Part shown: positions 30,471 to 58,426 of the stretch, piece after piece
Numbering within the stretch: the stretch's first letter is position 1
Layout: every line of letters begins with the position of its first letter
Assembly: GCA_965207885.1 (NCBI GenBank)
Contig: OZ242311.1
Span: forward strand, 1,056,001 to 1,120,000
DNA: 64,000 nucleotides
Direction of reading: 5' to 3'
Source of the DNA: Candidatus Latescibacterota bacterium
GTDB lineage: Bacteria > Latescibacterota > UBA2968
Position numbers and translations under genes: made by a program
The notes under the pieces: generated by a model
The model's database searches: none
Seen by the model: only the letters and a program-made list of their open reading frames with translations
Told to the model about the DNA's origin: nothing

Positions 30471-30477
30471 GGTCGTT

Positions 30478-32472: not shown

Positions 32473-32493
32473 AAGTGTGAAAAGGAGAATAAA

Positions 32494-33627: not shown

Positions 33628-33634
33628 TTAAGGT

Positions 33635-35083: not shown

Positions 35084-35120
35084 AGGTGTAATTTTTATTT
35101 TTTTGAATAGGAGAATGGTC

Positions 35121-37586: not shown

Positions 37587-37616
37587 ACGACTTACCTTCA
37601 GTTCAAAGGAGGAATA

Positions 37617-39608
37617 GTGTCTGAGAATGTCATTGTTGCTCCACGGCCCGAAACACAGGCTAGTCCGTTCCCGGATCGTGGGGTCACATTCCGGTCGCTC
37701 GCTCTGGGGCTCTCCATTGTGATCCTTACCAACCTCTGGGTGACCTATGCCGAAGCGGTCGTCAAATCTACCCGGCTCAATCTGGCCTATTTTCAACTCC
37801 CACTCCTGGCCCTCTTCGTCCTGCTGGTGGGATTTCTCAATCCTCTGCTCAAGCTCTACCGGCAACGGCTTGCCTTTTCCCCTGCGGAGCTTCTGACAGT
37901 CGTGGCTATAGGTATTGTCGGGTCGGTCGTTCCCGGTTCCGGCATTACCGGCTTTTTCCTGGGCATCATCACCTCCCCGTTCTACTTCGACACCCCCGAA
38001 AACCAGTGGGCCGAATTCTATCACCCCCACCTCAGCACCTGGATGGTGCCCACCGACCGCGAGGCTCTGAGGATGTTCTACGAGGGGCTACCTCCGGGCG
38101 CACAGGCTCCCTGGACGGTCTGGCTGGTTCCGCTGGTGTGGCGGAGCAGCCTCATCGCGGCCATCCTGGTTGGAACGGCGTGTGTGATGGCCATCCTTCG
38201 AAAGCAGTGGGTTGAGCACGAGAAACTCGTGTACCCGCTGGTCTCCATACCCATTGAATTGGTCAGAGACACCGATTCGGAGCGCCTCTGGCCGACCTTG
38301 ATGCGGAGCAAGCTCTTCTGGGTTGCGGCCCTTCTGGCGTTTGGACTCTTCTTCTGGAAATCCCTCTCCTGGTTCTTTCCCGCCGTCCCCGATATCGCCC
38401 TTATCCCTTCCGGGGGCTACTTCCAATTCACGCGCTACTCGCCTTCCCTACGAGTTCGCCCTTTGCAGTTCTACACGCTCGGCTTTGCGTACTTCGCCAA
38501 TCTGGAGGTCCTCTTCAGTGTCTGGTTCTTCTTCCTGATCCATGTGGTGGAAGGGCACATCATCAACCGCATGGGTCTGCAGACCGAGCAACCCTCGGAC
38601 TCTTTTACCGCCGATCAGGAGATTCAGTCCTGGCAGTGTTTCGGCGCACTGGCCAGCCTGGTCCTCTGGCGACTTTGGGTGGCTCGGCACCATCTGAGAG
38701 ACGTCTTTTTGAAGGCCCTCAATTCCCGTTATCCAGCCGATGACCGCCAGGAGATCCTCTCTTACCGCACATCGGTTTTGGGGCTGCTGCTGAGCCTGTT
38801 GTATATCCTGTTTCTGATCCATCAATCCGGCATGGACCTCCTCACAGCGCTGGTCTTCATGGCCGGTACGGGAATCATTTACATCGGGATGGCCCGAATC
38901 GTCTCCGAGACCGGCCTGGTTACCACGCAGGCCCCCATCACCGCGCAGGCCTTTGCGATGGACATGCGGGGGACCGACGTGATGACAGGGTCCACCCTCA
39001 CCTCGATGCTCCTCTCCTATTCGCTGATTGACTACATCCGTGGCCTGTTCGCGCCGGGGCTGGCGCAGGCCGTCAAGCTGGGCGATCTGGTTCGTAGAAA
39101 CCGACGCATGCTGGTGTTCTGGGTGGTGATCGGTGCATTGGTCGGACTCGTCGCCTCGGTCTGGCTTACGCTTTATCTGGGATACGTCCACGGAGCCTAC
39201 AACTTTGCGTTCTACTACAAAGGGAATCCCAAGAGTGTCTTCTCCTCTACCCTATCGCATATGAGGACACCTGGGCCAATGGCCCTGGACCGGATGATTT
39301 TCTTTGGCATTGGCGCGGCTCTGATGGGTCTGCTCACCTTCCTGCGGTATCGGTTCGCCTGGTGGTCGATCCATCCCATCGGCCTGGCCATATCTGCCTC
39401 GGATAACTCCAAGTCCATCGTCATCCCGGTCTTCTTCGCCTGGGTCTGCAAGGCGATCCTGATGCGCGTTGGCGGGGTGACCCTCTACCGCCGGGCCATG
39501 CCCCTGTTTTTGGGCCTGTTGATTGGCTACACGTTTGGGGTCGTCTGGTGTTTTCTCATTGACGCAGTCTGGTTCCCCGGGCAGGGACATGGCGTGCATA
39601 GTTGGTGA
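37617..39608 (+). CDS. DUF6785/DUF6784-type membrane protein, paralog 2
   Basis: GTG start after AGGAGG; FDTPENQW, RKQWVEHEKLVYP and WWSIHPIG motifs. Confidence 0.78.
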   Translation: MSENVIVAPRPETQASPFPDRGVTFRSLALGLSIVILTNLWVTYAEAVVKSTRLNLAYFQLPLLALFVLLVGFLNPLLKLYRQRLAFSPAELLTVVAIGIVGSVVPGSGITGFFLGIITSPFYFDTPENQWAEFYHPHLSTWMVPTDREALRMFYEGLPPGAQAPWTVWLVPLVWRSSLIAAILVGTACVMAILRKQWVEHEKLVYPLVSIPIELVRDTDSERLWPTLMRSKLFWVAALLAFGLFFWKSLSWFFPAVPDIALIPSGGYFQFTRYSPSLRVRPLQFYTLGFAYFANLEVLFSVWFFFLIHVVEGHIINRMGLQTEQPSDSFTADQEIQSWQCFGALASLVLWRLWVARHHLRDVFLKALNSRYPADDRQEILSYRTSVLGLLLSLLYILFLIHQSGMDLLTALVFMAGTGIIYIGMARIVSETGLVTTQAPITAQAFAMDMRGTDVMTGSTLTSMLLSYSLIDYIRGLFAPGLAQAVKLGDLVRRNRRMLVFWVVIGALVGLVASVWLTLYLGYVHGAYNFAFYYKGNPKSVFSSTLSHMRTPGPMALDRMIFFGIGAALMGLLTFLRYRFAWWSIHPIGLAISASDNSKSIVIPVFFAWVCKAILMRVGGVTLYRRAMPLFLGLLIGYTFGVVWCFLIDAVWFPGQGHGVHSW

Positions 39609-39640: not shown

Positions 39641-39669
39641 TTGACACAGGATTTCTTAAGGTTTATCTT
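39641..39669 (+). promoter_or_regulatory. Sigma70 promoter of the outer-membrane cluster, giving a leader of about 310 nt
   Basis: TTGACA-17 bp-TATCTT. Confidence 0.6.
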
Positions 39670-39777: not shown

Positions 39778-39986
39778 TTGGAAAGATGTGAAGAGGCACT
39801 GTCACCTCCTCGCATATCCAGGTCAGGAAATAAAATGGGTTGTCTTTTATTGTCAAGACAAATCTTGTATTAAAGTGCTATTTGGTAAACTGTTATGCCT
39901 GTTGAAAGGAGGTGAAGCGCGGGAAGATCTAATAGTATTTTGGGGTAGTTTTCGAAGGGATTGAAGGTCTCAAAAAAGGAGGAATT

Positions 39987-40700
39987 ATGAGATACAGGAT
40001 GTTGCTCTTAGCGGGGGTCTTACTGCTGGCCTGGCCCTTTGGCGCCGTCGCGCAAGTTGGGGGGACGTGGGGTTTTGGCGTCGCTGCCAGCTACGATCTG
40101 CCGACCTTCAAATTAAACGAATGGTTTCCCTCCGGTGGTGTCAATCTCGGTGGGACGGTGCTCTACGTCCTCGACGAGCGGTGGACCGCCGAAGTGGAGG
40201 GACACTACATCAAGTACAGTGGCGGAGAACTGGAGAACCGAACATTTCTCTGGTCGATTGACAAGCAGGAGTATGCCAGCCCACAGGCCAGTTCGAAGAT
40301 GACCTGGATGGGCGGGACGATTAGCTGGCTATATCATTTTAATCAGGGGGGTAAGAAGTTGGCAGAAGGCGGGGGTGGGGCGCCCTACCTGGTGGTGGGT
40401 ACGGGGTATTTTAAATATAAGAACGAGGTCAGTGGCCTGATCTGGCCCGGTCAGCCCGCGCCGCCTCTGAACGAGAATCTGCTGCTGGAACCCGCGATTG
40501 ATCAGCACATGACGCTGGGGCTTAATGTGGGGTTGGGGGTGCAGTTTTTCACCTCCCAATCTCTGGCTATCGACTTGAGAGGACAGTATAACATCGTGTT
40601 GGGCAGTGTGCGTCCGCTGGAGGCCTGGGGAATGGAAGAGGTCTTCCCCTTTCAGAAGCTCAATGTCGGTGTGCGGTTCAAGTTCTATACCCAGCAGTAG
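39987..40700 (+). CDS. Outer-membrane beta-barrel protein (small, OmpA/OmpW-like)
   Basis: Signal peptide ending AVA, alternating amphipathic strands, PYLVVGTG, C-terminal VGVRFKF. Confidence 0.78.
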   Translation: MRYRMLLLAGVLLLAWPFGAVAQVGGTWGFGVAASYDLPTFKLNEWFPSGGVNLGGTVLYVLDERWTAEVEGHYIKYSGGELENRTFLWSIDKQEYASPQASSKMTWMGGTISWLYHFNQGGKKLAEGGGGAPYLVVGTGYFKYKNEVSGLIWPGQPAPPLNENLLLEPAIDQHMTLGLNVGLGVQFFTSQSLAIDLRGQYNIVLGSVRPLEAWGMEEVFPFQKLNVGVRFKFYTQQ

Positions 40701-40749
40701 CCCATATCTGGCAATGTCTCACGACTTTACGCGATAAGGAGGTTTTTCT

Positions 40750-43700
40750 ATGAAATACCTTTATTATTTGGTTTGCCTGTTGTTGATCGGGGTGCCGATC
40801 GCCTTCTCGCCCGCGGACGTATCGGCCGGGACGGTCGGCAAACTCAATGGTGTTGTGGCCGATGTCTCAGGCGCGCCATTACCCGGGGCCAACGTGGTGA
40901 TCCAGGGCACCCGCAGGGGTGCTACGACCGATGCAGAAGGCTACTTTCTCATCCTGTCGGTCGAACCCGGCAGGTATAAACTGGAAGCCTCGATGGTCGG
41001 TTATACCGCGGCGACCAAACAGGATGTGGTCGTGCAAGCGGATTTCACCACCACCGTCGATTTTAATCTGGTGGAGGCCGCGCTACAGGCCGAAGAACTG
41101 GTGGTGATTGCCGAGCGACCACCAGTAGAGCCGGACCGGACCTTCAGCCGTTATGTCGTCGATGCCGAGGACATCGAGAATGTGCCCCTTGCGCGCACCC
41201 TCGATGAGGTGATCGCGCTACAGCCGGGCGTGTCGCTGGACGGCAACCTCCGCATCCGGGGTAGCAACAATGCGTCTATGGCTGGCTCAAACGATACCTT
41301 TGTGGAGATTGACGGGGTTCGACTCGTCAACAATGACGGATTTGTTGCTCCCACCTGGATGGGCATCAACAAAAGCGCCCTGCAGGAAGTGCAGGTGGTC
41401 ACTGGTGGGATGGAGGCCGAGTACGGCAACGCTCAGGCAGGCGTGATCAGCCTGGTCACCAAAGAGGGCCGGGACGCCTATACGGGCTTTGGGGAATACC
41501 GCCTGGACCTGCCGGCCAAGAGGCACTGGGGACCGAATATCTACGATCATCCCTTCCACGCAGGCAAGGTGGATTGGAGTGACCCGGCCTTTACGAACGA
41601 AACCGATCCCGAGACCGGGCGCAAGGTGCATGAACGCACCGACTACACGGGCGTGTTCGGGCACTATTTGGAAGGTTCGGCCTCTGGACCGATCGCTAAG
41701 GATGTCTCCTTCTTTGTGAATGCGGCCCACAGTCGCAAGGCCCCCATCTATCCCAGCGCGCTCAACCGCGAGCCACTCAATATCCAGACTTTCGGCAACT
41801 TTGTCACCCGACCATCTTCCAACTTCAAGGTTAAGTTGGGCGGGGTGTTCGCCTATTACGAGGGTTTCGATCCCGGGACCAGAGGCAGCAGACGAATTGG
41901 AGGGTCTAATACGAGGATCGATCCCGATGATCCCTTCGCTGGCCAGCAGCTAGATACCGACGGGGGTGTGCGGGGTATCACCAGGGGCGGGCGCAATCTT
42001 TTCCTGCCCGAGGGCCACTCTGCAGCTGGCAAACAGAACTTCAGCGAAAGGATGGCGTATCTCCTCTTTACCCATACCCTATCCCCCACGACCTTTTATG
42101 AGGTGCGTCTCAACTGGCAGCAAACCCTGACCGATACCAGCGATGTGCCTCCTGTGACCGAAGGTGTGCGACGCGACAGCAAGGGGTACTTCCTGCCGAG
42201 GGATATCTACTCCTTTAAGTATATGGATAACAAGCGGGTGCGCATCAAAGCCGATCTGAGCAGCCAGATCACCAAGGGACACTTTGTCAAAACCGGGTTT
42301 GAGATCACCCGCTACGGCCTCTACCACCACGAGGAGGGCTCCCGTCAGGCCCGCGCTTTTACGATCCGTCTTGCCGGCGGTCCGGGCGACCCGATCATCG
42401 GTATGGAGCGGGCCCATCCCATCCAGTACGGGGTCTATATCCAGGACAAGATGGAGTTTGAGGGCCTGGTGATCAACGCCGGTATCCGGTTCGACGCAAT
42501 GGACCCGGTAGAGGGCTGGCGCAATATCGCCACGCTCTGGATGTTCAGACACTACGAATCCCTGACGCGCTTTCGGAATATGCCCGTAACCGAAGACCTC
42601 CCCCTTTTGCACGCATGGAGTCCCAGGGTTGGAGTCTCTCACCCCATCACCGATCGCTCCACCATCCGGTTCTTCACTGGCGTCTTCCGGCAATTTCCCG
42701 ATATCCAGAATTTTTACCAGCGGGAATTCGGGGGGACAGGAGAGGACAGGGATGTGAACGGGAACGGACAGATCGATCAGATGGAGAAGTACAACAGCCT
42801 GAAGCAGTTCCACCACGCGGTCTCCGGGATGTCCGACATCGAGCCGGAAAAATCAACCAGTTTCGAGGCCGGGTTTGACTGGAACTTCGCCGGTAAATAC
42901 GTTGCCAGTGTCACCGCCTTTTACAGGGATCAGATGGGGATTATCACCAATGGCTCCACCTCCTGGCGCCTGGAGGAACCAGCTTTCGGGTACGACGGCG
43001 TCTCTTCAAGGGGATCCGGCAACCGGGGGCGGAAGTGGTCCCGGGGGTTCGAGGTCTCTCTGCGAAAGCAGTTCAGCAACATGGTCACGTTCAACGTGGC
43101 GTATAATCTTGCATGGACAAAAAATATGAATAACTCCGGCTTTCGGAACTGGCGAGCCTACCATGTGGTCGGGCCCTCATACGTCATGAGTGACCGATAC
43201 TTCGTGGGTGTGGATGCGCGGGCGGACGGGCAGGAGGTTCCTCACGCACCCACTCAGGAAGAGCGGGTGCAACTGGCCGAAAGGGCCAGGGCACAACTCA
43301 GGGATTACGATAGCCGAATCGGCGAGCCTCTGTCCGATGGCTACTGGAACGCCCCGGTGGAGATACTCGAGCCTGGGATTTATGCCTATACCATCGGCCG
43401 GTACAATACGCCGACATTGCAAAGCGGTATCGACCGGCGCAACATCCTCAGCGGGCAATTTCTTTTTTCCAGTCCCTCTGATTTTCACATTGCGCCCCTG
43501 GCCAGTCTTCGGATATCGTTGCTCTACCGGCTCCATACCGGTATTCCCTTCAATTATACGCCTCCCACAGGTCCCCAGGAACGACGGACCGGACCGATCT
43601 CTCTGGTTAGCGATATCAACCTGGAGAAGGAATTCTACATTGGTGGTGCTATGACAGCCACCGCTTTCCTGGAGATCCACAACCTCTGGAACGACAAGGC

Positions 43701-43863
43701 CGACATGACGACCGGTTTCGATTGGATACAGTGGGGGAAGCAGATGCCAGACCCGGACAACGGCACCTACTTGAAGTATGGGGATGGCGATATAGACCGT
43801 TACGACCAGGGACTGGGGCGATATCCCCGCAACTGGGTGGTCGGCGCACGCCTGAAGTTTTGA
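40750..43863 (+). CDS. TonB-dependent receptor with an N-terminal carboxypeptidase-regulatory-like domain
   Basis: Signal peptide; PLPGANVVI, LQPGV, IRG, GGMEAEYGNA, SPRVGVSHPI and EPEKS motifs; terminal Phe. Confidence 0.92.
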   Translation: MKYLYYLVCLLLIGVPIAFSPADVSAGTVGKLNGVVADVSGAPLPGANVVIQGTRRGATTDAEGYFLILSVEPGRYKLEASMVGYTAATKQDVVVQADFTTTVDFNLVEAALQAEELVVIAERPPVEPDRTFSRYVVDAEDIENVPLARTLDEVIALQPGVSLDGNLRIRGSNNASMAGSNDTFVEIDGVRLVNNDGFVAPTWMGINKSALQEVQVVTGGMEAEYGNAQAGVISLVTKEGRDAYTGFGEYRLDLPAKRHWGPNIYDHPFHAGKVDWSDPAFTNETDPETGRKVHERTDYTGVFGHYLEGSASGPIAKDVSFFVNAAHSRKAPIYPSALNREPLNIQTFGNFVTRPSSNFKVKLGGVFAYYEGFDPGTRGSRRIGGSNTRIDPDDPFAGQQLDTDGGVRGITRGGRNLFLPEGHSAAGKQNFSERMAYLLFTHTLSPTTFYEVRLNWQQTLTDTSDVPPVTEGVRRDSKGYFLPRDIYSFKYMDNKRVRIKADLSSQITKGHFVKTGFEITRYGLYHHEEGSRQARAFTIRLAGGPGDPIIGMERAHPIQYGVYIQDKMEFEGLVINAGIRFDAMDPVEGWRNIATLWMFRHYESLTRFRNMPVTEDLPLLHAWSPRVGVSHPITDRSTIRFFTGVFRQFPDIQNFYQREFGGTGEDRDVNGNGQIDQMEKYNSLKQFHHAVSGMSDIEPEKSTSFEAGFDWNFAGKYVASVTAFYRDQMGIITNGSTSWRLEEPAFGYDGVSSRGSGNRGRKWSRGFEVSLRKQFSNMVTFNVAYNLAWTKNMNNSGFRNWRAYHVVGPSYVMSDRYFVGVDARADGQEVPHAPTQEERVQLAERARAQLRDYDSRIGEPLSDGYWNAPVEILEPGIYAYTIGRYNTPTLQSGIDRRNILSGQFLFSSPSDFHIAPLASLRISLLYRLHTGIPFNYTPPTGPQERRTGPISLVSDINLEKEFYIGGAMTATAFLEIHNLWNDKADMTTGFDWIQWGKQMPDPDNGTYLKYGDGDIDRYDQGLGRYPRNWVVGARLKF

Positions 43864-43890
43864 CCTTGAATATACACTGGAGGAATTTCA

Positions 43891-46069
43891 ATGTCCTTAT
43901 CTCTGATAAAGAAATGGCTTGGGGTGGGCCTGCTGGCGCTGGCGCTACTGCTGTCGGGCGCCCTGACCGCTTCGGCCCAGCTCGATTACTACGCCAGCCG
44001 CATGATGACGCGCTCGCTTGTGTGGGAGACCTTCATCCGGCAATGGCGTGCTGGTACTCACGAATGTGGATGGAGAGAAGCACGTCTCCTGGACCGGTCC
44101 GCGCCACCCCTCGGAGGATGTGTTCCCGATGATCTACGACATCCTGAACGGCCCAGAGGCCAATTGGGGCATCCGCACGGTCGTGCCCTTCAGGGGGATC
44201 AAGACCGGTCTGGAAATGTCCAACTGGTATCCCGGCGCAACGCCCAAGTCGGGCGATGCCACGGCTGCCGAACCCTACGAGATTCACAATTACGACTACC
44301 ATATCTATCCACCTGTGCAGGACGCGCCTGAGGAGATTCACATCACGCAGACGCGGTTCAAGCACAACATCGTGATGACGCGCAAGATATACGCCTGGAG
44401 CCACCAGGACTTCGACGACTTCATTATCGTGGATGTCGAGTTCGAGAACCGGGGCGATAAACAGCTCAATGACACCTACTTCGGCTTCAATAACACCCTC
44501 TACGTCAACTCCACCGGTACCTCTTACCGGTGGGGGCACGAAGGGGGGATGATCCGATACAACAGGTCGGGTGGGCTGGACGATTTCTTCCGTTTCTCGG
44601 GATCTCCCGGCTTCCAGCCCAATTCCCTCAGCGGCTTGACCGCTGCGGACTTCGCCGGCAAATACATCACCTATGTATATGACGGGAATACCACCAATAG
44701 CTTTGAGGAAGACACGGGAGATCCATTTGATTCCGATCTTGAAAATCCCGGTGGTTCCTTCCCGGCCAGCGGAGACCGACCGAAAGGCACACCGATCGCG
44801 CCAGAATACGCCGGGTTTGCACCTCTGGCGTTTCGCAATTCCGGTTCCAGCCACGTTTTCAACGCGAACGATCTGGCACAGGGCTATGTGGATCCGAAGA
44901 GCGACCAGGTTTTGGGGCATTGGTTCAGGGCACACGGGCTTGATAATATCGATGATCCCATCGGCAAGGGCGTCGGTATGGCCGAGCTCTACGACATTTA
45001 CACGGCTCCCTCGATGGCCGATCCCCCTGCAGAGGGGGTCGTCTGGTCCGACCAGATCTACGGTCCCTACGACCTGGCACCCGGAGATAAGGCCAAGATC
45101 GTGGTCGCCTACGTCTTTGGCCACGCCGGGGACATAGAAGAGAGCAATGTCGATTCCAGGACCGGTTTTGCAAGGGACCAGATGAGTTGGGCATTCGGGG
45201 TGGGGGAAAGGGGCCTGAATGACGATGCCCGCAAGCAGGTGCTTGCCCAGGGTGAAAAGGCCCTCCTGCAGAACCTGTCTCACGCCCAGTTCGCATACGA
45301 CAGCGGCTTCCGCATTCCCAACTCTCCTCCGGACGTGGACTTCCAGGCGGGAAATAACCAGGATGCCAACATCGAGATCTCGTGGACTGACGCCGCTGAA
45401 AAGGCAATCAATCCCGAATATGGGACGGCCGATGTTGTGGCCTACCGGATCTACCGATCTACCTTCCAGGAATACGGTCCGTGGGAACTGGTGGAAGAGA
45501 TTCCCGCCACCAGTGCCGGAACGTATAAGTATGTCGATACGAACTCTCTGGCTGGCTTTCGCTATATCTACAATGTCCGCGCCGTTGCTTCCCCCAAGCA
45601 GGACTGGAACGAAGGGTCAGTGACCCTGGCCGATCTGCCTCCGAAAGTCCGGGAACACCTCACCGTGAGCGGACTGGAGGGCGGCTACTCCGCGCCGGAG
45701 ACAAAGGTCAATGTGCCGCTGCGCCCCAAGATGGCCAGTAGCACATTGAGCGACAATCTGGAACGACAGGTGCGGGTGGTGCCCAACCCGTTCAGCGTGA
45801 CTCTGGACGGCCAGAGTTACCAGGGTGCCGAGAGCCTGCGGTTTGTGGGATTACCCCACAAGTGTACGATCCGCATCTTTTCGGTATCGGGCGATATGGT
45901 AGCGATAATCAGACACGACAACCCGCTTCTCGGCGAGACCAATTGGGAGTTAAAGGATCGGTTCCTCAGTGGAGAGGTCATTTCCGGACTGTACTATTTT
46001 GTCGTGGAATCCGAAGTACAGGAGAGCATGGGCAAGCTGTCTCGAGGAGCCTTTATCCTGCACAAGTAG
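43891..46069 (+). CDS. Large secreted protein with an FN3-like domain and T9SS-CTD/FlgD-Ig-like C-terminus, split by a frameshift near 44030
   Basis: Frame 1 from 43891 (GGAGG RBS) gives a signal peptide; frame 2 (44018-46069) carries the body, ISW...AYRIYRS...YVD and VVPNPF...IRIFSVSGD...W...SGLYYF tail. Confidence 0.75.
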
Positions 46070-46097
46070 CTGTTTTAAATAAAGGATGGTTTCAACT

Positions 46098-47081
46098 ATG
46101 AAAAGAATTCTCTTCTTTGTGATCGCGATTGTCGTCTGCGGCACGCTGGGGGCGGAGGCACAGCAAGAGTTGGATGTGCCGCACCTGTTTAATGACAAGG
46201 TTACCGGAGCTTTTGAAAAGCAAGGGCCGAGTACGCTCGCCTTCCTGAAGGTCACACCCAGTGCCCGTATTGCGGCAATGGGCGATGCCTATACCTCTGT
46301 TGCTGAGGGCATGGATGCGATCTATTTGAATCCGGCCGGTATCACCTCGGTGCGGCGGTTGGGTTATTCCTTCGGATATGTGCAGTGGCTGGTAGATTCC
46401 AGGTTCTACTCTGGCGCTGTTGCCCTCAATGTCGGGTGGAACGCTGTGCTGGGCATTTCCGTGGTCAATCACCAACCTCCAGAGATCGAACGGACCACCA
46501 TCCTGGAGCCCAATGGCACAGGAGAAATGCTGGATGTAGGCGACTACGCCCTGGGTGTGATTTTTGCCCGTCAGTTGACCGACAAGCTCTCTGCGGCTGC
46601 CAAGTTCTCATTCGTACAGTCCAATCTTGGCCCGGAAAAGCTGGGCGGGACCTCGCTGAGCCTCTACACGTTGCTGCACACTGGCTACCGCAGCCTGCGC
46701 ATCGGCATGGGCATCAACAACCTGGGCAACGAGATGAAGATCCACAGCGACCCCGCGGAATTTCCAGTGGTGTTCAACCTGGGCACCTCGATGGAGGTCG
46801 TCGGCGAGTTGGGCGACCCGATGTCGTTGACCGCCTCCTTTGAGGGGGCCTACTTCACCGACCGCGACCAGCGCTATAATCTGGGCGGCGAGTTGTGGTT
46901 GAAGAATATCGTCGCGCTGCGCGCTGGCTATAAGTTTGACTACGATGCAGAATCGTGGACCGTCGGCGCAGGGCTGAAGGGCACCTTCTCAGGTCGAAAT
47001 ATTCGGCTGGACATCGCCTACTCCAATTTCGGCAAATATTTCGATGCCCCGATCCGTCTGAGTTTTTCCGGCTCGCTGTAA
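46098..47081 (+). CDS. PorV/PorQ-family outer-membrane beta-barrel
   Basis: FLKVTPSARIAAMGDA, YLNPAG, ALRAGY and DIAY motifs; signal peptide; about 330 aa. Confidence 0.82.
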   Translation: MKRILFFVIAIVVCGTLGAEAQQELDVPHLFNDKVTGAFEKQGPSTLAFLKVTPSARIAAMGDAYTSVAEGMDAIYLNPAGITSVRRLGYSFGYVQWLVDSRFYSGAVALNVGWNAVLGISVVNHQPPEIERTTILEPNGTGEMLDVGDYALGVIFARQLTDKLSAAAKFSFVQSNLGPEKLGGTSLSLYTLLHTGYRSLRIGMGINNLGNEMKIHSDPAEFPVVFNLGTSMEVVGELGDPMSLTASFEGAYFTDRDQRYNLGGELWLKNIVALRAGYKFDYDAESWTVGAGLKGTFSGRNIRLDIAYSNFGKYFDAPIRLSFSGSL

Positions 47082-47105
47082 CCGCCAGACTGAAAACGCG
47101 AAATC

Positions 47106-47137
47106 CCCTCGGCTTCCCTTTTAGGCGGAGCCGAGGG
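47106..47137. other. GC-rich hairpin after the PorV-like gene (terminator or mRNA stabiliser)
   Basis: ccctcggcttc-N10-ggagccgaggg, with no plus-strand U-tract. Confidence 0.5.
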
Positions 47138-47226
47138 AACCTCAAGTGGCGCAAAGTTTACCCGACTGGATTTTTTCGGTTCGAATGGGGGGCTTTTGCG
47201 CCATTGCGATTTTTTTAACAGATTCC

Positions 47227-49239
47227 ATGCCAGATTCTTCAGCTCTTGACACCAAGGCCAGCCAGGCTCCCGAGAAGGCGCCCGCCCGCATCACCCTCCG
47301 CTCCGTTCTCCTGAGCGCGGCCACTGTCGTAATTCTCAACATCTATGCCGACTATGCCGGCATGGTCATGGGCTCCTTTTCCCTGAATAAGTCCCAGTTT
47401 CCAATGGCGATGCTTATCCCGTTTGGTCTTTGGCTCTTCGTCAACCTGGGCCTGAAGGCCTTTTTCCCCCGAGCGGCGTTGAGCGGCACCGAACTCCTGG
47501 TGATCTACAGCATGTCCTGGATCGCCGGAAATATCCCCTTCGAGGGTTTTACCGGCTACTGGGCGAGCACCCTTGCCGCTCCCACCTACTTTGCCTCCCC
47601 CGAGAACCGTTGGGAAGAGGCGTTCTTCGACGCCCTGCCCTGGTGGTATATGCCCGATGCGTCTCCGGCTGTTATCCGGCCCTATTACGACGGCCTTGCG
47701 CCCGAGACACCCGTGCCCTGGATCGGGTGGGTCAGACCCCTCTTTTGGGGTACGGCGGTCCCCGTCGCCGTGCTCACAGCCGGCATCTGCGCGTTTATTA
47801 TCCTCCAGCGCCAGTGGGAGGATGCCGAGCGGTTGACCTATCCGCTTGCGCAATTTGCCGTGGAGTTGACGTCGGGATTCGACGAGCCGGGACGGGTACC
47901 CCGCCTCTTCCGCGATGGCGTCTTCTGGGCGGGCTTTTTTCTGGTATTTGGTATCTTTCTCTGGAATATCGTGGGTTACTTCGCGGTCGTATTGCCCGAA
48001 ATCACCGTTTTTGGATTCTACCTGACCAAGGCGGTGCATGTAAGCAGGGACTTTCCTCCGGTCTATCTCCGCGTCCTGCCCACGGTGATCGGGCTTACCT
48101 ACTTCTGCAACCTGGATATCCTGCTCAGCCTCTGGGCATTCCGCTTGCTGGCGATTTTCAAATTGGGAATCATGAACCGCACTGGCTTCGGTATTGGACT
48201 GTCCGGACAGCAGGCTCCTCCCAGTGGAATCCTCGACCTGGAGGGCTACGGCGCAATGGTCCTGTTGGCGCTCTGGTCGGTCTGGGTCGCGCGGGGCCAT
48301 CTGCAGCGGGTCTGGCGCACCGCACTCGGGGACGTGGGTGCTGTGAAGGACGAGGGGACCGCGTCCTATCGGATTGCCCTGCTCGGGTTCGGGATTTCTA
48401 CCGTCTTCATCATCGGCTTGATGCACGCCTTCGGCATATCGCTCCCAATGGCTATCGCCCACACTCTAATGCTCTACATCGCCTACCTGACCGTTGCTAA
48501 GTTCACGGCCGCCAGCGGGTTTACCCATCTCTTTCCGGTGGCTGTAAAAGGGGGACCTATGCTGGAGACTCTGGTCGGCACCGCGAACCTCTCTCGGGGG
48601 GACCTCGTCGGCATCGGCATGGTCAACACGGGCGCGTTCTTCGGCAATCTCCGCATCCCGGCCTGGCCGGCGCTGCCACACCACTTCAAGCTCCTCAGCA
48701 GCCTCACCCGCAGGCGATCGCTCGTCGTCTGGCTCGCTCTGCTGGCGTTTCTCGCGGGTCTGTTCGCCTCCTTCTTCTTCGTGATCTACCTGCCCTATAT
48801 CTACGGTGGACAGAACCTGCACAAAGGACCTTTTAACCCGGAGGGATCACTGGTCGCTCCGTACAACAGGCTGGCGGCGAAAGTCCTGGAGAGCGATCTT
48901 ACCGTCTTCGACCCCGCCAAGGTGGGCGTTTGTCTTTTTGGCGCCCTGGAGGTTCTGCTCATGATATTGTTGCGCAACCGCCTGCCCTGGTGGCCCCTTC
49001 ATCCCCTCGGCCTGGCCTTCCAGAATACCACAGGTCCCCGGATCTACGCTTTCTCCATCTTCTTGACCTGGGCTGCCAAGAGCCTGATTATGCGCATCGG
49101 GGGCATTGGTCTGTATCGCCGCGCCGCTCCTTTTTTTATCGGTCTCCCGATAGGCTACGTCGCAGGGGTCTTTCTCTCCTCCCTTGTTGACTATATCTGG
49201 TTCCCCCTCGGAGACGGGCATTATGTTCACGGCTGGTAA
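47227..49239 (+). CDS. DUF6785/DUF6784-type membrane protein, paralog 3
   Basis: YFASPENRW, RQWEDAERLTYP and WWPLHPLG motifs; clearly alignable to paralog 1. Start codon uncertain. Confidence 0.78.
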   Translation: MPDSSALDTKASQAPEKAPARITLRSVLLSAATVVILNIYADYAGMVMGSFSLNKSQFPMAMLIPFGLWLFVNLGLKAFFPRAALSGTELLVIYSMSWIAGNIPFEGFTGYWASTLAAPTYFASPENRWEEAFFDALPWWYMPDASPAVIRPYYDGLAPETPVPWIGWVRPLFWGTAVPVAVLTAGICAFIILQRQWEDAERLTYPLAQFAVELTSGFDEPGRVPRLFRDGVFWAGFFLVFGIFLWNIVGYFAVVLPEITVFGFYLTKAVHVSRDFPPVYLRVLPTVIGLTYFCNLDILLSLWAFRLLAIFKLGIMNRTGFGIGLSGQQAPPSGILDLEGYGAMVLLALWSVWVARGHLQRVWRTALGDVGAVKDEGTASYRIALLGFGISTVFIIGLMHAFGISLPMAIAHTLMLYIAYLTVAKFTAASGFTHLFPVAVKGGPMLETLVGTANLSRGDLVGIGMVNTGAFFGNLRIPAWPALPHHFKLLSSLTRRRSLVVWLALLAFLAGLFASFFFVIYLPYIYGGQNLHKGPFNPEGSLVAPYNRLAAKVLESDLTVFDPAKVGVCLFGALEVLLMILLRNRLPWWPLHPLGLAFQNTTGPRIYAFSIFLTWAAKSLIMRIGGIGLYRRAAPFFIGLPIGYVAGVFLSSLVDYIWFPLGDGHYVHGW

Positions 49240-49267
49240 GTTGGAATTTTCAAACGGAGAAAACACA

Positions 49268-50713
49268 ATGTCAGACCATCTGCCAAATATCCTGTGGTAC
49301 TGCACCGACCAACAGCGCTTCGACACCATCGGCGCGCTGGGCAATCCCCACGCTCGCACCCCAGCACTCGACCGGTTGGTATCCGATGGCGTGGCTTTCA
49401 CGCGCGCCTACTGCCAGCATCCTATCTGCACCCCGAGCCGTGCCAGCTTTATGACCGGGCGCTATCCCAGTGCAGTACACGTCAATTACAACGGCAATGA
49501 CTACTTTCCCAAAGAAGCCGAGGCCACGCTCGTGAGCCGCTTGCTGGCAGAGGCCGGCTACGATTGCGGGCTGGTTGGAAAACTACATCTGGCGGGGAGC
49601 AAGAACGGGCGCGAATCCCGAGCCGACGATGGGTTCAGGTACTTCCAGTGGAACCACACTTTAGTTAACCCCCTGTCGCCCGACCAGGATGATTACGCCG
49701 ATTGGCTGAGTAAAAAAGGTCTGGATCCCGCCGAAGTCGTCAGGCTCCCGCACCGGAAGTTGGACCGCGTTATGGCCCCAACACCCGAACGCGACAACGT
49801 ACCACCCGACCTGCATCAGACCACCTGGTGTACGGAGAAAGCCCTTGAGTTTATCGGCCAGGCACAGGCCCCCTGGATGCTGTGCGTGAATGTCTTCTAT
49901 CCCCACAAACCCTTTAACCCGCCCTGGGAATACTATCGTCGGTTCGATCCCGCCGCCATGCCCTTACCACACTTCCGCGAAAGCGACATCGCCCACCAGG
50001 ACAGGCTGGCGGAGATGGGCGTGCGTTTTCAGACGCGCTCTCTTCCCCCCGATGAGAGAAACGCCCGGGCCCTGTATGCTGCGTACTGCGCCATGGTCGC
50101 GCTGGTAGATGACCAGTTCGGACGCATCCTGAGCTTTTTGGACGAAACCGCACAGCGCGAAAACACGGTTGTGCTCTTCACCAGCGATCACGGTGAAATG
50201 CTCGGGGACCACGGCCTGGTTCTGAAGGGCTGCCGCTTTTACGAAGGCGGAGTACACGTTCCCCTCATCTGGTCGTGGCCCGAACGCTTCCGGTGCGGTA
50301 TGCGCAGCCCGGCTCTGGTCGAACTCATCGATATCGCGCCCACCTTGCTGGATCTGGCTGGATTGTCGATTCCCGAGCGCATGCAGGGAAAGTCGTTGCT
50401 GCCCATCCTGACCGGGCGTGCAGAACCGGATAAGCACCGGGAATTTGTGCGGTCTGAATACTTCGACCACCGGCCATCCAGTCCCGTACACGCGACGATG
50501 TACCGGGACGACCAGTGGAAGATCGTGGCCTACCACAGTGCCGCGCACGATGATCTGGGCGAACTCTACGACCTGGAAAACGATCCCTGGGAGTTTACCG
50601 ATCTGTGGCAGAATCCGGAATATCGGGACCTGAAATTGCAGCTTTTGAAAAAAAACTTTGACGCTCGTGTGTTATCGATGGATCCCGGTCCTCCGCAAAC
50701 AATGAGTTTTTAA
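49268..50713 (+). CDS. Sulfatase
   Basis: PNILWYCTDQ, CTPSR, GKLHL and TSDHG; close paralog of 5967-7424. Confidence 0.92.
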   Translation: MSDHLPNILWYCTDQQRFDTIGALGNPHARTPALDRLVSDGVAFTRAYCQHPICTPSRASFMTGRYPSAVHVNYNGNDYFPKEAEATLVSRLLAEAGYDCGLVGKLHLAGSKNGRESRADDGFRYFQWNHTLVNPLSPDQDDYADWLSKKGLDPAEVVRLPHRKLDRVMAPTPERDNVPPDLHQTTWCTEKALEFIGQAQAPWMLCVNVFYPHKPFNPPWEYYRRFDPAAMPLPHFRESDIAHQDRLAEMGVRFQTRSLPPDERNARALYAAYCAMVALVDDQFGRILSFLDETAQRENTVVLFTSDHGEMLGDHGLVLKGCRFYEGGVHVPLIWSWPERFRCGMRSPALVELIDIAPTLLDLAGLSIPERMQGKSLLPILTGRAEPDKHREFVRSEYFDHRPSSPVHATMYRDDQWKIVAYHSAAHDDLGELYDLENDPWEFTDLWQNPEYRDLKLQLLKKNFDARVLSMDPGPPQTMSF

Positions 50714-50724
50714 GGAGATATTAG

Positions 50725-52311
50725 ATGAACTCGAGTAGATCGACGGAAAATAGCGCAAGACCAAATATCCTCCTGATTATGGTCGATGATATGGGCTTTT
50801 CCGACCTGGGATGCTATGGCGGCGAGATCCGCACGCCCAACCTCGACCGGCTTGCCTCAAACGGCCTTCGCTTCACCCAGTTTTACAACAATGCCCTGTG
50901 CGCACCCACGCGGGCGTCTCTGCTGACCGGGCTTTACTCCCAGCAAGTCAGCAGGGGAGGGCCGAAGGGCTGTGTTACCATCGCCGAGGTACTCAAGGCG
51001 GCTGGCTACCGCACCCTCATGGCGGGAAAATGGCATCTGTCCGGGCTCTTCGCAGGATTACCCGTCGAACGGGGTTTCGATCGCTATTACGGCCTCGTCG
51101 ATGGGTGCTGTAACTTCTTTAACCCGGGTCTGCAACGATCCGGTGAAGAACGGCCCGGTGAAAAATTTCCGGATGACAATCCCGCATTTGCCATCGACGA
51201 CAGGGTCATCCAGCCCTATACACCCGAGGATAAAGACTTCTACACCACCGACGCGTTCACAGATTACGCCCTTGGATACCTGGACGAGTACGGGCGGGAA
51301 GACAGACCTTTCTTCCTCTACGTGGCCTATACTGCGCCGCACTATCCCCTGCACGCCTGGCCGAGGGATATCGCAAAGTATAAGGGCAAATACAAAGTCG
51401 GTTGGGACAGGCTGCGGGAGCAGCGCCTCAAACGCATGGTCGAGATGGGCCTGATTGACGAGCGGTGGGCCCTTTCGGCGCGCGATCCGGATTCGCTGTC
51501 TTGGGAGGAGATCGAGGATCGAGATGCCTGGGATCTGAAGATGGCTGTTTACGCGGCCATGATTGACCGCGTGGACCAGAATGTCGGGCGCCTGCAGGCC
51601 AAACTCCGCGAACTCGGTATAGAGGAAAACACCCTCGTGCTATTTCTGTCCGACAACGGCGCCAGCGATGAAGACAGGACCAACACGCCCGCTATTCCGC
51701 CCGGTCCCGCGGCGTCGTACCGTACGGTAGATCTACCCTGGGCCAATCTCAGCAATACGCCTTTTCGCAAATTCAAGCGGTGGAATCACGAGGGTGGCAT
51801 CTCTACACCGTTTATCGCACACTGGCCGCGCGTGATTCAAAACGGGGGCGAGATCACCCATCAGATCGGTCACCTCATCGATGTTATGGCTACCTGTACC
51901 GATATTGCAGGGGCGGAATACCCGTCCTCCCACAAAGGCGTCCTGCCCCTGGAAGGCAAGAGCCTGTTGCCGGTTTTCAGAGGCGAACAGCGCGAGGGCC
52001 ACAGGGCGCTGTACTGGAATCAGTATAGTGAGACCGCCCTCTGGCGTGCCGTGAGAATGGGAAAATGGAAACTCGTCTCTCCTGATTATTGGAGAGATTA
52101 CAATCCCTGGCGTCCTGAAAGAGAGGCAAGGTCAGAACAAAAAGCGCGGCCGGACCCGAATTCGCTTTGGGAACTTTACGATATGGAGGTTGATCGAACA
52201 GAGGTGAATGACCTTGCGGATCAATACCCGGATCTGGTGAAAGAGATGGCCGAGATGTATGATGTATGGGAAAGGCATGTCCGGGGTGATTCGGGAATTG
52301 GCTCAGGTTAG
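50725..52311 (+). CDS. Arylsulfatase
   Basis: PNILLIMVDD, CAPTR, GKWHL and SDNG motifs. Confidence 0.92.
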   Translation: MNSSRSTENSARPNILLIMVDDMGFSDLGCYGGEIRTPNLDRLASNGLRFTQFYNNALCAPTRASLLTGLYSQQVSRGGPKGCVTIAEVLKAAGYRTLMAGKWHLSGLFAGLPVERGFDRYYGLVDGCCNFFNPGLQRSGEERPGEKFPDDNPAFAIDDRVIQPYTPEDKDFYTTDAFTDYALGYLDEYGREDRPFFLYVAYTAPHYPLHAWPRDIAKYKGKYKVGWDRLREQRLKRMVEMGLIDERWALSARDPDSLSWEEIEDRDAWDLKMAVYAAMIDRVDQNVGRLQAKLRELGIEENTLVLFLSDNGASDEDRTNTPAIPPGPAASYRTVDLPWANLSNTPFRKFKRWNHEGGISTPFIAHWPRVIQNGGEITHQIGHLIDVMATCTDIAGAEYPSSHKGVLPLEGKSLLPVFRGEQREGHRALYWNQYSETALWRAVRMGKWKLVSPDYWRDYNPWRPEREARSEQKARPDPNSLWELYDMEVDRTEVNDLADQYPDLVKEMAEMYDVWERHVRGDSGIGSG

Positions 52312-54003: not shown

Positions 54004-54927
54004 ATGTCCACTTTTAACATTCCCGACGGTACCCGGGTTTCGATGTCTGGGCGCGAACTCGTCTTTGGCGAAACCATTTTCACCCCCAGAGAAGCCACCC
54101 ATCTGCTCGACGATACCGAGGCCCTTCACCAGCGCATCGAAGAAGACGGCTATCTCATCATTCGCAACTTTCATACGCGGCAGCAAATTCAAAATGCCCG
54201 GCGAGAAATTCTGGAAAACATGGCCGCCCAGAATCTCCTTGCCCCGGACACGCCTCTGGACAAGGCGGTGATTGGCGAAAATCGCCGTCCCCGCTTTCCG
54301 GATCGACTTGTAAAACAATGGCCGGGATTTCTCGAAATCGTTGAAGGTAAAAACACCATGGACTTCTTTGAACGCTTCATGGGTGGCCCCGTACTTTCAT
54401 TTGACCACAAATGGCTCCGCGTGATCTGCCGCGGTCAGAATGCGGGGGCGCATTACGATGTGGTCTATATGGGTGCCGGCACCAAAAAACTCTATACGAT
54501 GTGGACCGCGCTCGGCGATATATCTCTGGACATGGGTCCGCTTGCTCTCTGTTTAGGCTCCCACAAAATCCAGCATCTCAAAAATACTTACGGCGCAATG
54601 GACGCGCATCAAGATCTGGACGGGGGTGCGTTTTCCACCGATCCCGATGACGTTATGAAAACTCTGGGTGTCCGCTGGGCATCTACTCCTTTTAACGCGG
54701 GCGATGTCGTCATTTTCGGCATGTATTTCATGCACGCCTCACTTGAAAACACGTCCAATTATTTTCGCTTTAGCAGCGATACCCGTTATCAACTCGCATC
54801 CGAAGCGATTGACGATCGCCATATGGGAGAGGACGCGGGCGACGTCATTCCCAAGGCTCCTCTGGAAGATCGAAAATCCATTTTGAAACTCCGCAAAGAA
54901 TGGGGCTTTACCTCAAAAGCAAAGTAG
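54004..54927 (+). CDS. PhyH family 2OG-Fe(II) dioxygenase
   Basis: AHYDVVYM, GSH, MHAS and SSDTRYQ motifs. Confidence 0.87.
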   Translation: MSTFNIPDGTRVSMSGRELVFGETIFTPREATHLLDDTEALHQRIEEDGYLIIRNFHTRQQIQNARREILENMAAQNLLAPDTPLDKAVIGENRRPRFPDRLVKQWPGFLEIVEGKNTMDFFERFMGGPVLSFDHKWLRVICRGQNAGAHYDVVYMGAGTKKLYTMWTALGDISLDMGPLALCLGSHKIQHLKNTYGAMDAHQDLDGGAFSTDPDDVMKTLGVRWASTPFNAGDVVIFGMYFMHASLENTSNYFRFSSDTRYQLASEAIDDRHMGEDAGDVIPKAPLEDRKSILKLRKEWGFTSKAK

Positions 54928-57550: not shown

Positions 57551-58426
57551 ATGAAATACGGACTGAGTGTGGAACAGGTGGCGCAGTTCCACGACGATGG
57601 TTTTTTGATCGTCCGCGATCAGCTTCCGAAAGAAGCGTACCAACCGTTTCTCGATGAAGTTGTAGCTAAAATTGATGAGGTGGTGAGCGAGGCGGTGGGT
57701 GAGGGGCTGCTCGATCCGGGGGATACGTTTCCCGACGCGTCTTTTGAGACCCGATTGGCTCTGGTGTCGAATGCCTGTTCGAAGCCAGAGCGGATCTGGA
57801 AAAATTTTCAGGGTAAGAGATTTAAGACGCCCGGGATGTTCGCGCTCAGGACGCATCCCGCTATACTGGATGCGACTGAATCTCTGATTGGTCCTGAAAT
57901 TTTTGCCCATCCGCAGTCCAATCTGCGCGCAAAATTGCCGGATCTGGAGGCGACCGTGGTGCCGTGGCATCAGGATCTGGCGTATCTCATACCGGAGGAT
58001 GCGGGAGAGACGCTTTTTGTCAATTTCTGGATCCCACTGGTTAAGGCGACGGCTGATAACGGCTGTTTGCAGGTGCTTCGCGGTTCCCATCGGGTTGGTC
58101 TTTTGCCGCATGATTATCGAACGCCCCACTTTAAAGGGGTCTTCGAAAGCGAGCTTCCAGATTCTGAGGTCGTGACCTGCGAGGTGGATGTGGGCGATGT
58201 ATTGTTGACGATGGAGCGGGTTCTTCATCGATCAACCCCGCATACGACAAATTCGGTCAGGTGGAGTCTGGATGTTCGCTATAGCCGCATTGGGCTTCCG
58301 ACGGGTCGTGAGGATGTGCCGGGTTTTATCGCTCGAAGCCGGGTTAATCCGGAGAGCGTGGCGAGGTCCCATCACGATTGGATCAGGAATTACGAGTTGG
58401 CGGGTATCGATCCGTTCGGCAATTGA
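57551..58426 (+). CDS. PhyH family 2OG-Fe(II) dioxygenase
   Basis: WHQD, NGCL, GSH, LHRS and RWSLDVRY motifs. Confidence 0.9.
   Translation: MKYGLSVEQVAQFHDDGFLIVRDQLPKEAYQPFLDEVVAKIDEVVSEAVGEGLLDPGDTFPDASFETRLALVSNACSKPERIWKNFQGKRFKTPGMFALRTHPAILDATESLIGPEIFAHPQSNLRAKLPDLEATVVPWHQDLAYLIPEDAGETLFVNFWIPLVKATADNGCLQVLRGSHRVGLLPHDYRTPHFKGVFESELPDSEVVTCEVDVGDVLLTMERVLHRSTPHTTNSVRWSLDVRYSRIGLPTGREDVPGFIARSRVNPESVARSHHDWIRNYELAGIDPFGN

Follow-up and report, generated by a model that had tools for sequence, protein, structure and literature searches.

A repeated SusD-less cassette joining a TonB-dependent receptor, a predicted T9SS-type tail protein and a PorV-like barrel in a sponge-associated Latescibacterota bacterium

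The window analysed here, a 64,000-nucleotide stretch of contig OZ242311.1 from an uncultured sponge-associated bacterium, carries a single copy of a Latescibacterota gene cassette, in which the key gene is disrupted (Table 1); the cassette also occurs in a Marinimicrobia lineage. With moderate confidence, we read the cassette as a multi-copy outer-membrane uptake unit in which a PorV-like barrel would anchor a ~780-aa protein by its C-terminal tail at the cell surface as the partner of a TonB-dependent receptor (TBDR), making it a SusD-less counterpart of SusC/SusD. Gene order and analogy with known systems suggest the contacts between tail and barrel and between the protein and the TBDR. We found no description of the cassette in the literature.

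Table 1. Features of the cassette and its upstream gap, in window coordinates
Feature	Position	Strand	Details
Best sigma-70-like promoter match	39641..39669	+	TTGACA-17-TATCTT, 10/12; weak candidate, in the 378 bp preceding the cassette
Small outer-membrane β-barrel, 237 aa, signal peptide, first cassette gene	39987..40700	+	weak OMP_b-brl matches
TBDR, 1037 aa: signal peptide, CarboxypepD_reg-like N-terminal domain, Plug, large barrel	40750..43863	+	
Broken gene of the ~780-aa tail protein	43891..46069	+	deletion junction 44033; stop 46067-46069
Predicted C-terminal T9SS-type CTD β-sandwich of the tail protein, body-frame residues about 576-683	45743..46066	+	
PorV/PorQ-family outer-membrane barrel (by profile), 331 aa, signal peptide	46086..47081	+	NF033709 144.7 bits
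DUF6785 + DUF6784 polytopic inner-membrane protein	47146..49239	+	PF20581 284.5 bits, PF20580 78.1 bits
Cys-type sulfatase, without signal peptide	49184..50713	+	PF00884 162.1 bits; CTPSR motif
Second Cys-type sulfatase, without signal peptide	50725..52311	+	PF00884 204 bits from residue 13; CAPTR motif

The genes, their order and the coordinates proposed in an earlier note on this DNA were all recovered on the + strand, with intergenic gaps of 11 to about 65 bp across the cassette; the PorV-like gene begins 16 bp past the tail-protein gene. A promoter scan of the upstream gap returned 9 sites compared with 6.7 ± 3.4 in shuffled sequences and is thus overall not above chance. In profile searches the small barrel matched OMP_b-brl at 21.8 bits and TIGR04565 at 24.7 bits, each under cut-off, and each of its 12 paralogs in the genome lies immediately upstream of a cassette TBDR. 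The TBDR itself is identified by its Plug domain and the large barrel that comes after it, with CarboxypepD_reg (PF13620, 73.9 bits; PF13715, 70 bits) and Plug (PF07715, 38.5 bits against a cut-off of 23.9) both above cut-off and weak matches only in the barrel region (OMP_b-brl_3, 19.3 bits). None of the window ORFs scanned belongs to the SusD, SprA or GldKLMN families, as the earlier note had remarked for SusD and SprA.

The cassette is a repeated and conserved unit. The 6.2-Mb single-contig Latescibacterota genome encodes 22 PorV-family genes above cut-off, and 18 of these come after TBDR and tail-protein genes, an arrangement far from chance. The 18 units, which supply the per-genome count of triplets that the earlier note had proposed to make, comprise 12 with the order small barrel, TBDR, tail protein and PorV, 4 that lack the small barrel, and 2 whose tail proteins are divergent. 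Of 61 related loci, 58 have the whole TBDR, tail-protein and PorV triplet and the remaining 3 are truncated by contig ends; in a second phylum, the Marinimicrobia lineage, all 6 loci have it. This bears out the idea of a conserved SusD-less unit. Genomes with the tail-protein family number 108 of 151 in the phylum and 79 of 81 in the second phylum. Pairwise distances among TBDR, protein body and PorV correlate (Pearson 0.89–0.91 over 105 cassette pairs), but this correlation reflects duplication as a unit and is not evidence of binding. Around the 17 other cassettes lie chiefly genes for oxidoreductases, PhyH dioxygenases, TPR and GWxTD proteins and symporters, and recognised glycoside hydrolases are few; the cassette substrate need not be a polysaccharide. 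Contigs from RNA libraries span the cassette at only 90–95% likeness and so derive from relatives, and such contigs cannot prove transcription.

SusD is a lid on SusC, and the cassette shares several features with SusC/SusD (RagA/RagB) pairs of Bacteroidota polysaccharide utilization loci: a large TonB-dependent barrel preceded by a CarboxypepD_reg-like N-terminal domain and a Plug, a gene for a putative extracellular partner directly after the barrel gene, and many paralogous copies per genome among substrate-processing genes. The partner differs in kind, being a TPR-like SusD lipoprotein in those loci and here a Sec/T9SS-type protein with predicted supersandwich, FN3 and CTD parts that comes with its own PorV-like barrel; a small extra barrel also heads most cassettes. 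No SusD/RagB lipoprotein adjoins the TBDR in the cassette, and across the whole genome SusD_RagB gives at most one match (33.1 bits, with an internal TAG) and SusD-like_3 gives none. The TBDR likewise fails the SusC/RagA model TIGR04056, scoring 77.6 bits against a cut-off of 368.25 over residues 31–241 in its N-terminal part only, and its solved relatives at E ≤ 0.001 include no SusC chain.

A predicted model of an intact ortholog of the tail protein (pLDDT 89.4, pTM 0.89) has three parts: a galactose-mutarotase-like supersandwich, an FN3 domain and a C-terminal tail. The supersandwich resembles the N-domains of GH94, GH15 and GH116 enzymes (Z 17.4–17.9, 246–275 residues aligned), with best matches to 2cqs_A (Z 17.9, 272 aligned, rmsd 4.0), 1lf6_A (Z 17.7) and 7w2t_A (Z 17.4), and aldose epimerases follow at Z 12–13.6. 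The modeled body thus has a galactose-mutarotase-like fold with putative sugar binding; the fold alone shows no function, and the protein could be an enzyme. The tail (ortholog-model residues 679–786) superposes on the CTD of PorZ (5m11_A) with Z 12.4 and rmsd 2.3 over 91 residues at 22% identity, and among the structures compared it is closest to this retained CTD. A profile alignment with the genome's 11 canonical T9SS type-A tails (TIGR04183) gave an hhalign probability of 97.5% (E 5.3e-12, 68 columns). The window protein itself has a weak match to the PorZ C-terminus (E 0.0084), misses the PorZ equivalog cut-off, and matches neither TIGR04183 nor PF18962 at E ≤ 0.01 (Pfam) or E ≤ 0.1 (NCBIfam); the sole cassette tail protein matched by these models is a divergent one at 1534553-1534714, under cut-off. 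By homology and predicted β-sandwich fold, the tail is a T9SS-type CTD, though the curated type-A models miss it. The earlier note's CTD-like assignment is therefore upheld by the profile alignment and the PorZ superposition and not by those models; the tail motifs it had quoted are present in the translation.

The barrel encoded directly downstream covers positions 3–322 of the 326-position NF033709 profile with residues 50–327, scoring well above the cut-off of 90, which assigns it by sequence to the PorV/PorQ family. It lies under the equivalog cut-offs for PorV (NF033710, 48.3 bits against 250) and PorQ (NF033711, 60.5 bits against 220), and PorP/SprF (TIGR03519) is not among its matches. 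When a profile of 47 barrel members was compared with solved chains, Flavobacterium johnsoniae PorV (6h3i_F, E 1.1e-21) was the only match at E ≤ 0.01. The identification of the barrel as PorV-like in the earlier note thus stands.

The closest precedent is the PorZ–PorQ pair of the Porphyromonas gingivalis T9SS attachment complex, described as a carbohydrate-binding surface protein that retains its type-A-like CTD, with a PorV-like barrel holding it (PMC10202324, PMC8754138). The PorZ CTD is reported to be kept to bind PorQ, and cognate PorV-like barrels may shield a CTD from cleavage (PMC10202324). The likeness lies in the tail superposition and in the score of the barrel on the PorQ model, but the cassette proteins miss both equivalog cut-offs, PorZ–PorQ is one housekeeping pair per genome compared with 18 cassette-specific pairs here, and PorZ has β-propeller domains and a role in sortase chemistry whereas the tail protein has a predicted supersandwich body and adjoins a TBDR. 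Type-B CTD cargo such as SprB of Flavobacterium is likewise encoded beside its own PorP/SprF barrel (SprF), which has been proposed to keep the cargo, still uncleaved, attached to the cell surface (PMC10202324); here the barrel is of the PorV/PorQ family by profile, the tail is type-A-like, and the pair is coupled to a TBDR. A FadL-type barrel, BamG, is described as holding the extracellular protein BamH by its loops (PMC12578637).

Together with these precedents, the gene content suggests a possible pathway. The ~780-aa protein would be exported by Sec, as its signal peptide indicates, and by its T9SS-type CTD would then be carried over the outer membrane by the SprA translocon, a route suggested by tail homology. 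Bypassing the sortase and keeping its tail, it would remain attached to its own PorV/PorQ-like barrel on the extracellular side, mirroring PorZ on PorQ. The supersandwich and FN3 domains would capture, and perhaps process, a glycan beside the TBDR, which would import it with TonB energy. The DUF6785/DUF6784 protein, with the predicted fold of a proton-coupled OPT/Yellow-stripe transporter, would then bring oligomers into the cytoplasm as substrates for the two sulfatases, which lack signal peptides.

It is also conceivable, though in our judgement unlikely, that the PorV paralog is a dedicated secretion helper that only shuttles its cargo from SprA to the sortase or the medium, the cargo being a secreted or LPS-attached polymer-cutting enzyme whose products the TBDR imports with no stable complex. 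PorV is described as such a shuttle (PMC8754138, PMC10202324), a PorU-like ORF of 1896 aa is present in the genome, the supersandwich also matches lyase domains and a GH174 endo-fucanase (9k1g_B, Z 13.4; 5xq3_B, Z 13.0), and many acidic positions of the body are invariant in the alignment (D236, D325, D335 and others) and could be catalytic. However, the closest folds belong to non-catalytic N-domains, from enzymes whose catalytic domains the tail protein lacks, and its tail most resembles the one that PorZ retains. The genome's best PorV candidate moreover lies elsewhere (L018:3346-4410, 165.3 bits) next to a canonical T9SS cargo gene and is by sequence a housekeeping-type PorV, leaving one dedicated barrel per cargo in the cassettes, which suggests stable pairing over shuttling. 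We hold it very improbable that the barrel is instead a FadL-type substrate channel, a second import route whose adjacency to the tail protein is unrelated to binding. PorV-family barrels are described as FadL homologues (PMC12578637) and the barrel falls short of both equivalog models, but among solved chains the 47-member profile matched no FadL at E ≤ 0.01, a FadL-type transporter being what the earlier note had named as contrary to its reading; the NF033709 cut-off is exceeded, and a CTD-bearing protein is encoded immediately before the barrel in 18 of the 22 genomic copies and every complete related locus. The minimal secretion route raised in the earlier note, in which the ~1000-aa cassette barrel exports the tail protein and is no importer, is scarcely credible: GldL, GldM and GldN models found no match in the single-contig genome, which leaves room for a non-canonical export route, but SprA is encoded outside the window (623.5 bits), as are the PorU-like protein and the housekeeping-type PorV, the Plug and CarboxypepD_reg N-terminal domain follow the domain order of TonB-dependent importers, and the downstream inner-membrane transporter and cytoplasmic enzymes fit import.

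The core T9SS is represented by SprA, the PorU-like protein and PorV but not by GldL, GldM and GldN; export by a T9SS is putative in this genome, or it proceeds in another way. For the anchored uptake unit that we favour, the conserved SusD-less arrangement, the PorV-family barrel and the CTD tail carry over from the earlier note, and the minimal T9SS does not.

In the window copy, the two portions of the tail-protein gene are out of register: the signal peptide reads in frame with 43891, the body with 44018. Compared with six orthologous loci (92–95% nucleotide identity), which each encode an intact 786-aa protein, the window lacks 182 bp at the junction. The deletion takes out about 61 codons, including those of invariant P72 and nearly invariant Y71 (alignment A3), and shifts the frame, leaving the window cassette without a working tail protein. 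It recurs in independent contigs of the likely source sample and is not present in the six orthologous loci or in another sponge metagenome. The copy was probably inactivated recently and may be decaying or working without its partner. The earlier note had held that a real and fixed frameshift would count against its reading; the frameshift is real and fixed in this copy and leaves the family untouched, with other copies and orthologs intact.

The DUF6785/DUF6784 protein has 12 hydrophobic segments, and its true start may be ATG 47185 or 47227. Its predicted model (pLDDT 83.6) aligns over 552 of 600 residues with barley YS1 (7wsr_A, Z 21.2) at 10–14% identity, the next best match having Z 6.1, and Foldseek agrees (E 2.6e-8, TM 0.58–0.68 to 7wsr/7wst). 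YS1 is a proton-coupled member of the OPT superfamily. The whole modeled chain thus has an OPT/Yellow-stripe-type transporter fold, in line with the transport role suggested in the earlier note, but differs from this family in sequence: the Pfam OPT model gave no match at E ≤ 0.01, and only PF20581 and PF20580 were found. Both sulfatases combine a PF00884 domain with the C-x-P-x-R motif of formylglycine-type enzymes, and their lack of signal peptides agrees with the cytoplasmic location proposed earlier. The first sulfatase probably starts at ATG 49268, from which its N-terminus leads directly into the sulfatase domain, and its gene is a variable insert among strains, missing from L037 and skipped in the run X5 contig.

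The cassette occupies eight closely packed ORFs from 39987 to 52311 on the + strand, and ORF positions, domain matches and N-termini bear out the gene content and order described in the earlier note. All four outer-membrane genes encode signal-peptide-like N-termini. Both sulfatases contain the C-x-P-x-R motif and lack signal peptides, each N-terminus leading directly into the catalytic domain, in agreement with the cytoplasmic location first assigned to them. A family scan found no SusD, SprA or GldKLMN member among the other ORFs scanned in the window, as had been read from the sequence for SusD, sprA and porKLMN, and a promoter and terminator scan did not rise above shuffled sequence. The first of the two sulfatases is a variable insert. 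It is absent from the orthologous locus L037, sequencing run X5 gave a contig that skips 49275-50678, and one from run X6 has 1141 other letters at 49255/49256. A sponge metatranscriptome library (X15) yielded contigs that span 39900-48272, from the small barrel through DUF6785, with a likeness of 90-95% indicating that they derive from related strains; they are assembled sequence and no proof of transcription.

Genes of the cassette in the window and their family matches
Feature	Coordinates	Strand	Matches
Small barrel, 237 aa	39987-40700	+	weak OMP_b-brl matches
TonB-dependent receptor (TBDR), 1037 aa	40750-43863	+	CarboxypepD_reg 73.9 bits, Plug 38.5 bits
Large unannotated (tail) protein	43891..46069	+	sole Pfam/NCBIfam match: weak PorZ C-terminus, E 0.0084
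PorV/PorQ-family barrel, 331 aa	46086-47081	+	NF033709 144.7 bits vs cut-off 90
DUF6785 + DUF6784	47146-49239	+	284.5 and 78.1 bits
Two sulfatases	49184-50713, 50725-52311	+	PF00884

We compared the tail-protein gene, which encodes its signal peptide in the frame of 43891 and its body in that of 44018, with six orthologous loci from sister genomes at 92-95% nucleotide identity. All six share the order DUF6785, barrel, TBDR, protein, PorV, DUF6785, sulfatase and encode an intact 786-aa tail protein. Relative to these orthologs the window is missing 182 bp at 44033, with 2-3 bases of microhomology at the junction, a loss that shifts the frame and takes out ~61 codons, among them P72, which is invariant in the family alignment, and Y71, which is nearly so. 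An independently assembled 3949-nt contig from X1, the run that contains all sampled words of the stretch and is its likely source sample, spans 42634-46582 across the junction with zero differences, and a 17.8-kb X5 contig from another sponge metagenome carries ~180 additional letters exactly at the deletion site. The deletion is real in the window's population and absent from relatives, so the frameshift, which the earlier note had listed as counting against its reading if real and fixed, is genuine for the window copy. It is also recent, since the remainder of the gene retains 95-97% protein identity to the orthologs. Ribosomal frameshifting and an internal start were both rejected as rescues of the gene, given that the ~61 lost codons include the invariant proline and that the downstream frame has no signal peptide. 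The window cassette is a naturally broken copy. One X15 contig stops exactly at 44033. In a second damaged cassette of the same genome (G000:C1:2297645-2301905; L005:3646-7906) an IS carrying a 374-aa DDE_Tnp_1 transposase gene on the opposite strand divides the TBDR into fragments of 710 and 323 aa, and the same transposase is found next to at least five further cassettes.

AlphaFold2 modelling of an intact ortholog from a 55-sequence alignment (pLDDT 89.4, pTM 0.89) predicts a galactose-mutarotase-like supersandwich for tail-protein residues 31 to ~590. Foldseek searches of the model against the PDB recovered an FN3 domain and otherwise weak partial matches only (TM 0.10-0.24); the supersandwich was recognized with an exhaustive structure aligner. 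Its nearest folds are the non-catalytic N-terminal domains of GH94, GH15 and GH116 enzymes (GH94 cellobiose phosphorylase, Z 17.9, 272 aligned, rmsd 4.0; GH15 glucoamylase, Z 17.7; GH116, Z 17.4); aldose epimerases reach Z 12-13.6. The final ~108 residues of the model superpose on the PorZ C-terminal domain (CTD; Z 12.4, rmsd 2.3, 22% identity), and the tail profile aligns with the 11 canonical TIGR04183 tails of the genome at 97.5% probability. The CTD-like ending proposed from sequence is thus upheld by profile and structure, although curated Pfam and NCBIfam CTD models do not match the window protein. The cassette TBDR reaches 77.6 bits against a SusC/RagA cut-off of 368, no SusC chain appears among its solved relatives, and judged by these profiles it is not a SusC/RagA member. 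The genome encodes at most one SusD-like gene. This sole SusD_RagB match (33.1 bits; G000:C1:5487969-5492211) directly follows a TBDR-like ORF, and a TAG falls within it; perhaps the locus is a solitary classical SusC/D pair in decay.

The stretch is found mainly in sponge metagenomes and belongs to a single-contig genome of 6.23 Mb with 22 PorV-family matches over the cut-off. Twelve of these genes follow a small barrel, a TBDR and a tail protein in strict order, four are preceded by a TBDR and tail protein with the small barrel missing, and two by a TBDR and a protein of 724 or 739 aa that shares the tail motifs; the other four are isolated, one of them being the best PorV-proper candidate, which adjoins canonical T9SS cargo. 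Among 61 loci with a tail-protein relative in genome_contigs, 58 keep the full TBDR, protein, PorV order and three are interrupted by contig ends; this list under-samples distant loci because its search patterns came from an alignment of closer relatives. Of the genomes sampled, 108 of 151 in the phylum (19/19 of the genus) contain the tail-protein family, as do 79 of 81 in a second phylum, whose loci are titled Marinimicrobia or Neomarinimicrobiota and retain the triplet in all six cases fetched. Five genomes of 1.4-7.1 Mb contain 10-28 PorV-family matches each. With 18 of 22 genomic PorV-family genes in triplets, the conserved, multi-copy unit that the earlier note proposed to count is confirmed. 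In the test of co-evolution that it called for, distances among TBDR, protein body and barrel correlate (Pearson 0.89-0.91; 15 cassettes, 105 pairs), a result that speaks only for duplication as a unit. Searched by profile, 1.84 billion cluster representatives yielded 597 tail-protein relatives at E <= 1e-30, and all named homologs are "hypothetical". At one locus (G000:C1:423541-428914; L019:3542-8915) an additional tail-protein paralog of 910 aa, sharing the C-terminal domain, precedes a different 865-aa TBDR-like ORF, and there is no PorV-like barrel; this may be a partial duplicate or a variant order.

Of the core type 9 secretion genes that the earlier note proposed to look for, the genome encodes SprA (623.5 bits) and a PorU-like candidate that scores under its cut-off, alongside a housekeeping-type PorV and the type-A tails. 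GldL, GldM and GldN models found nothing in the genome, and controls also fell under the cut-off, so that divergence and absence look alike in this search, which leaves two options, strongly divergent motor and ring components or a T9SS that operates without them. A PorK candidate from the GldK model was rejected, as the model matches only FGE-type proteins, below cut-off, which is expected in a sulfatase-rich genome.

PorQ is described as holding PorZ by its uncleaved tail (PMC10202324, PMC8754138), and PorP/SprF barrels are proposed as holders of type-B cargo (PMC10202324). The likeness to PorZ–PorQ lies in a barrel holding an uncleaved tail, which for the cassette is our proposal. By this analogy we lean towards a model in which the cassette barrel would be a permanent surface anchor for the tail of its neighbour, with binding inferred, and the predicted supersandwich protein would replace SusD as capture partner of the adjacent TBDR. 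We regard a dedicated shuttle for a secreted enzyme, the shuttle role being the one described for PorV itself, as a less probable alternative, the nearest folds of the cargo being non-catalytic. An independent FadL-type channel is improbable: the barrel profile found only F. johnsoniae PorV among solved chains, with FadL absent, and NF033709 scores over its cut-off. Export of the tail protein through the TBDR itself, which the earlier note had entertained for the large barrel, is very improbable in a genome encoding SprA; of that interpretation, a SusD-less conserved unit with a PorV-like barrel and a T9SS-type tail is supported.

The DUF6785/DUF6784 protein has ~12 hydrophobic segments, and its model (pLDDT 83.6) matches one solved fold, the OPT-type barley Yellow stripe 1 (Z 21.2, 552 residues aligned; Foldseek E 2.6e-8), with the next best match at Z 6.1. 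The predicted OPT-type fold supports the transporter role suggested earlier. Fold, gene order and the missing sulfatase signal peptides suggest that it would act as a proton-coupled oligomer importer supplying the cytoplasmic sulfatases. The genome contains at least 50 DUF6785-type and ~190 sulfatase-like ORFs.

The textbook model of glycan capture, SusC/SusD, is regarded as a Bacteroidota trait; both triplet-bearing phyla are abundant in sponges and the ocean. Neither the triplet nor DUF6785 is described in the openly available full texts searched. In a 2015 paper on Latescibacteria genomes, uptake of vitamin B12 and iron is the function given to Plug-domain proteins, and a 2023 review restricts T9SS tails to Bacteroidota (PMC10202324). 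The cassette is a variant assembled from known parts; new from the window are the naturally broken copy, the IS-split second cassette, the triplet in a second phylum and the predicted OPT-type fold of DUF6785. We tentatively propose, at somewhat less than even confidence, that FCB phyla outside Bacteroidota (Latescibacterota, the Marinimicrobia lineage and perhaps Ignavibacteriota) have a second, independent TonB-dependent glycan capture, in which a T9SS-delivered binder keeps its tail and docks next to the receptor on a PorV/PorQ-like barrel specific to its cassette, replacing a surface lipoprotein, tens of triplets per genome each feeding OPT-fold DUF6785 importers and cytoplasmic enzymes, with SprA maybe working without a recognisable GldLMN motor. 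If true, a fixed triplet repeated tens of times per genome in two further phyla would be a second architecture for high-affinity nutrient capture, give the PorV family a new role as permanent anchors, provide the first functional context for the unannotated ~780-aa protein family and DUF6785, and change the search strategy for "PUL-like" loci in uncultured FCB bacteria.

Flanks of the 17 other cassettes contain few recognised glycoside hydrolases, which counts against a strictly glycan-centred reading. Two further DUF6785+DUF6784 genes of the window (30433-32472 and 37617-39608) bound an upstream block on the same strand, 30433-39608, that also encodes a PhyH dioxygenase, a ceramidase-like protein and an 846-aa DUF4962/heparinase II/III-like protein; its content hints that the substrate of the neighbourhood may be of glycosaminoglycan type. 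GWxTD-domain proteins recur beside cassettes (window 55868-57439; L001:4390-5760 and L016:195-1559 at two other loci), once separating the PorV-like barrel from DUF6785, and TPR proteins and PhyH-type dioxygenases (window 32494-33627, 54004-54927, 57551-58426) also recur near cassettes.
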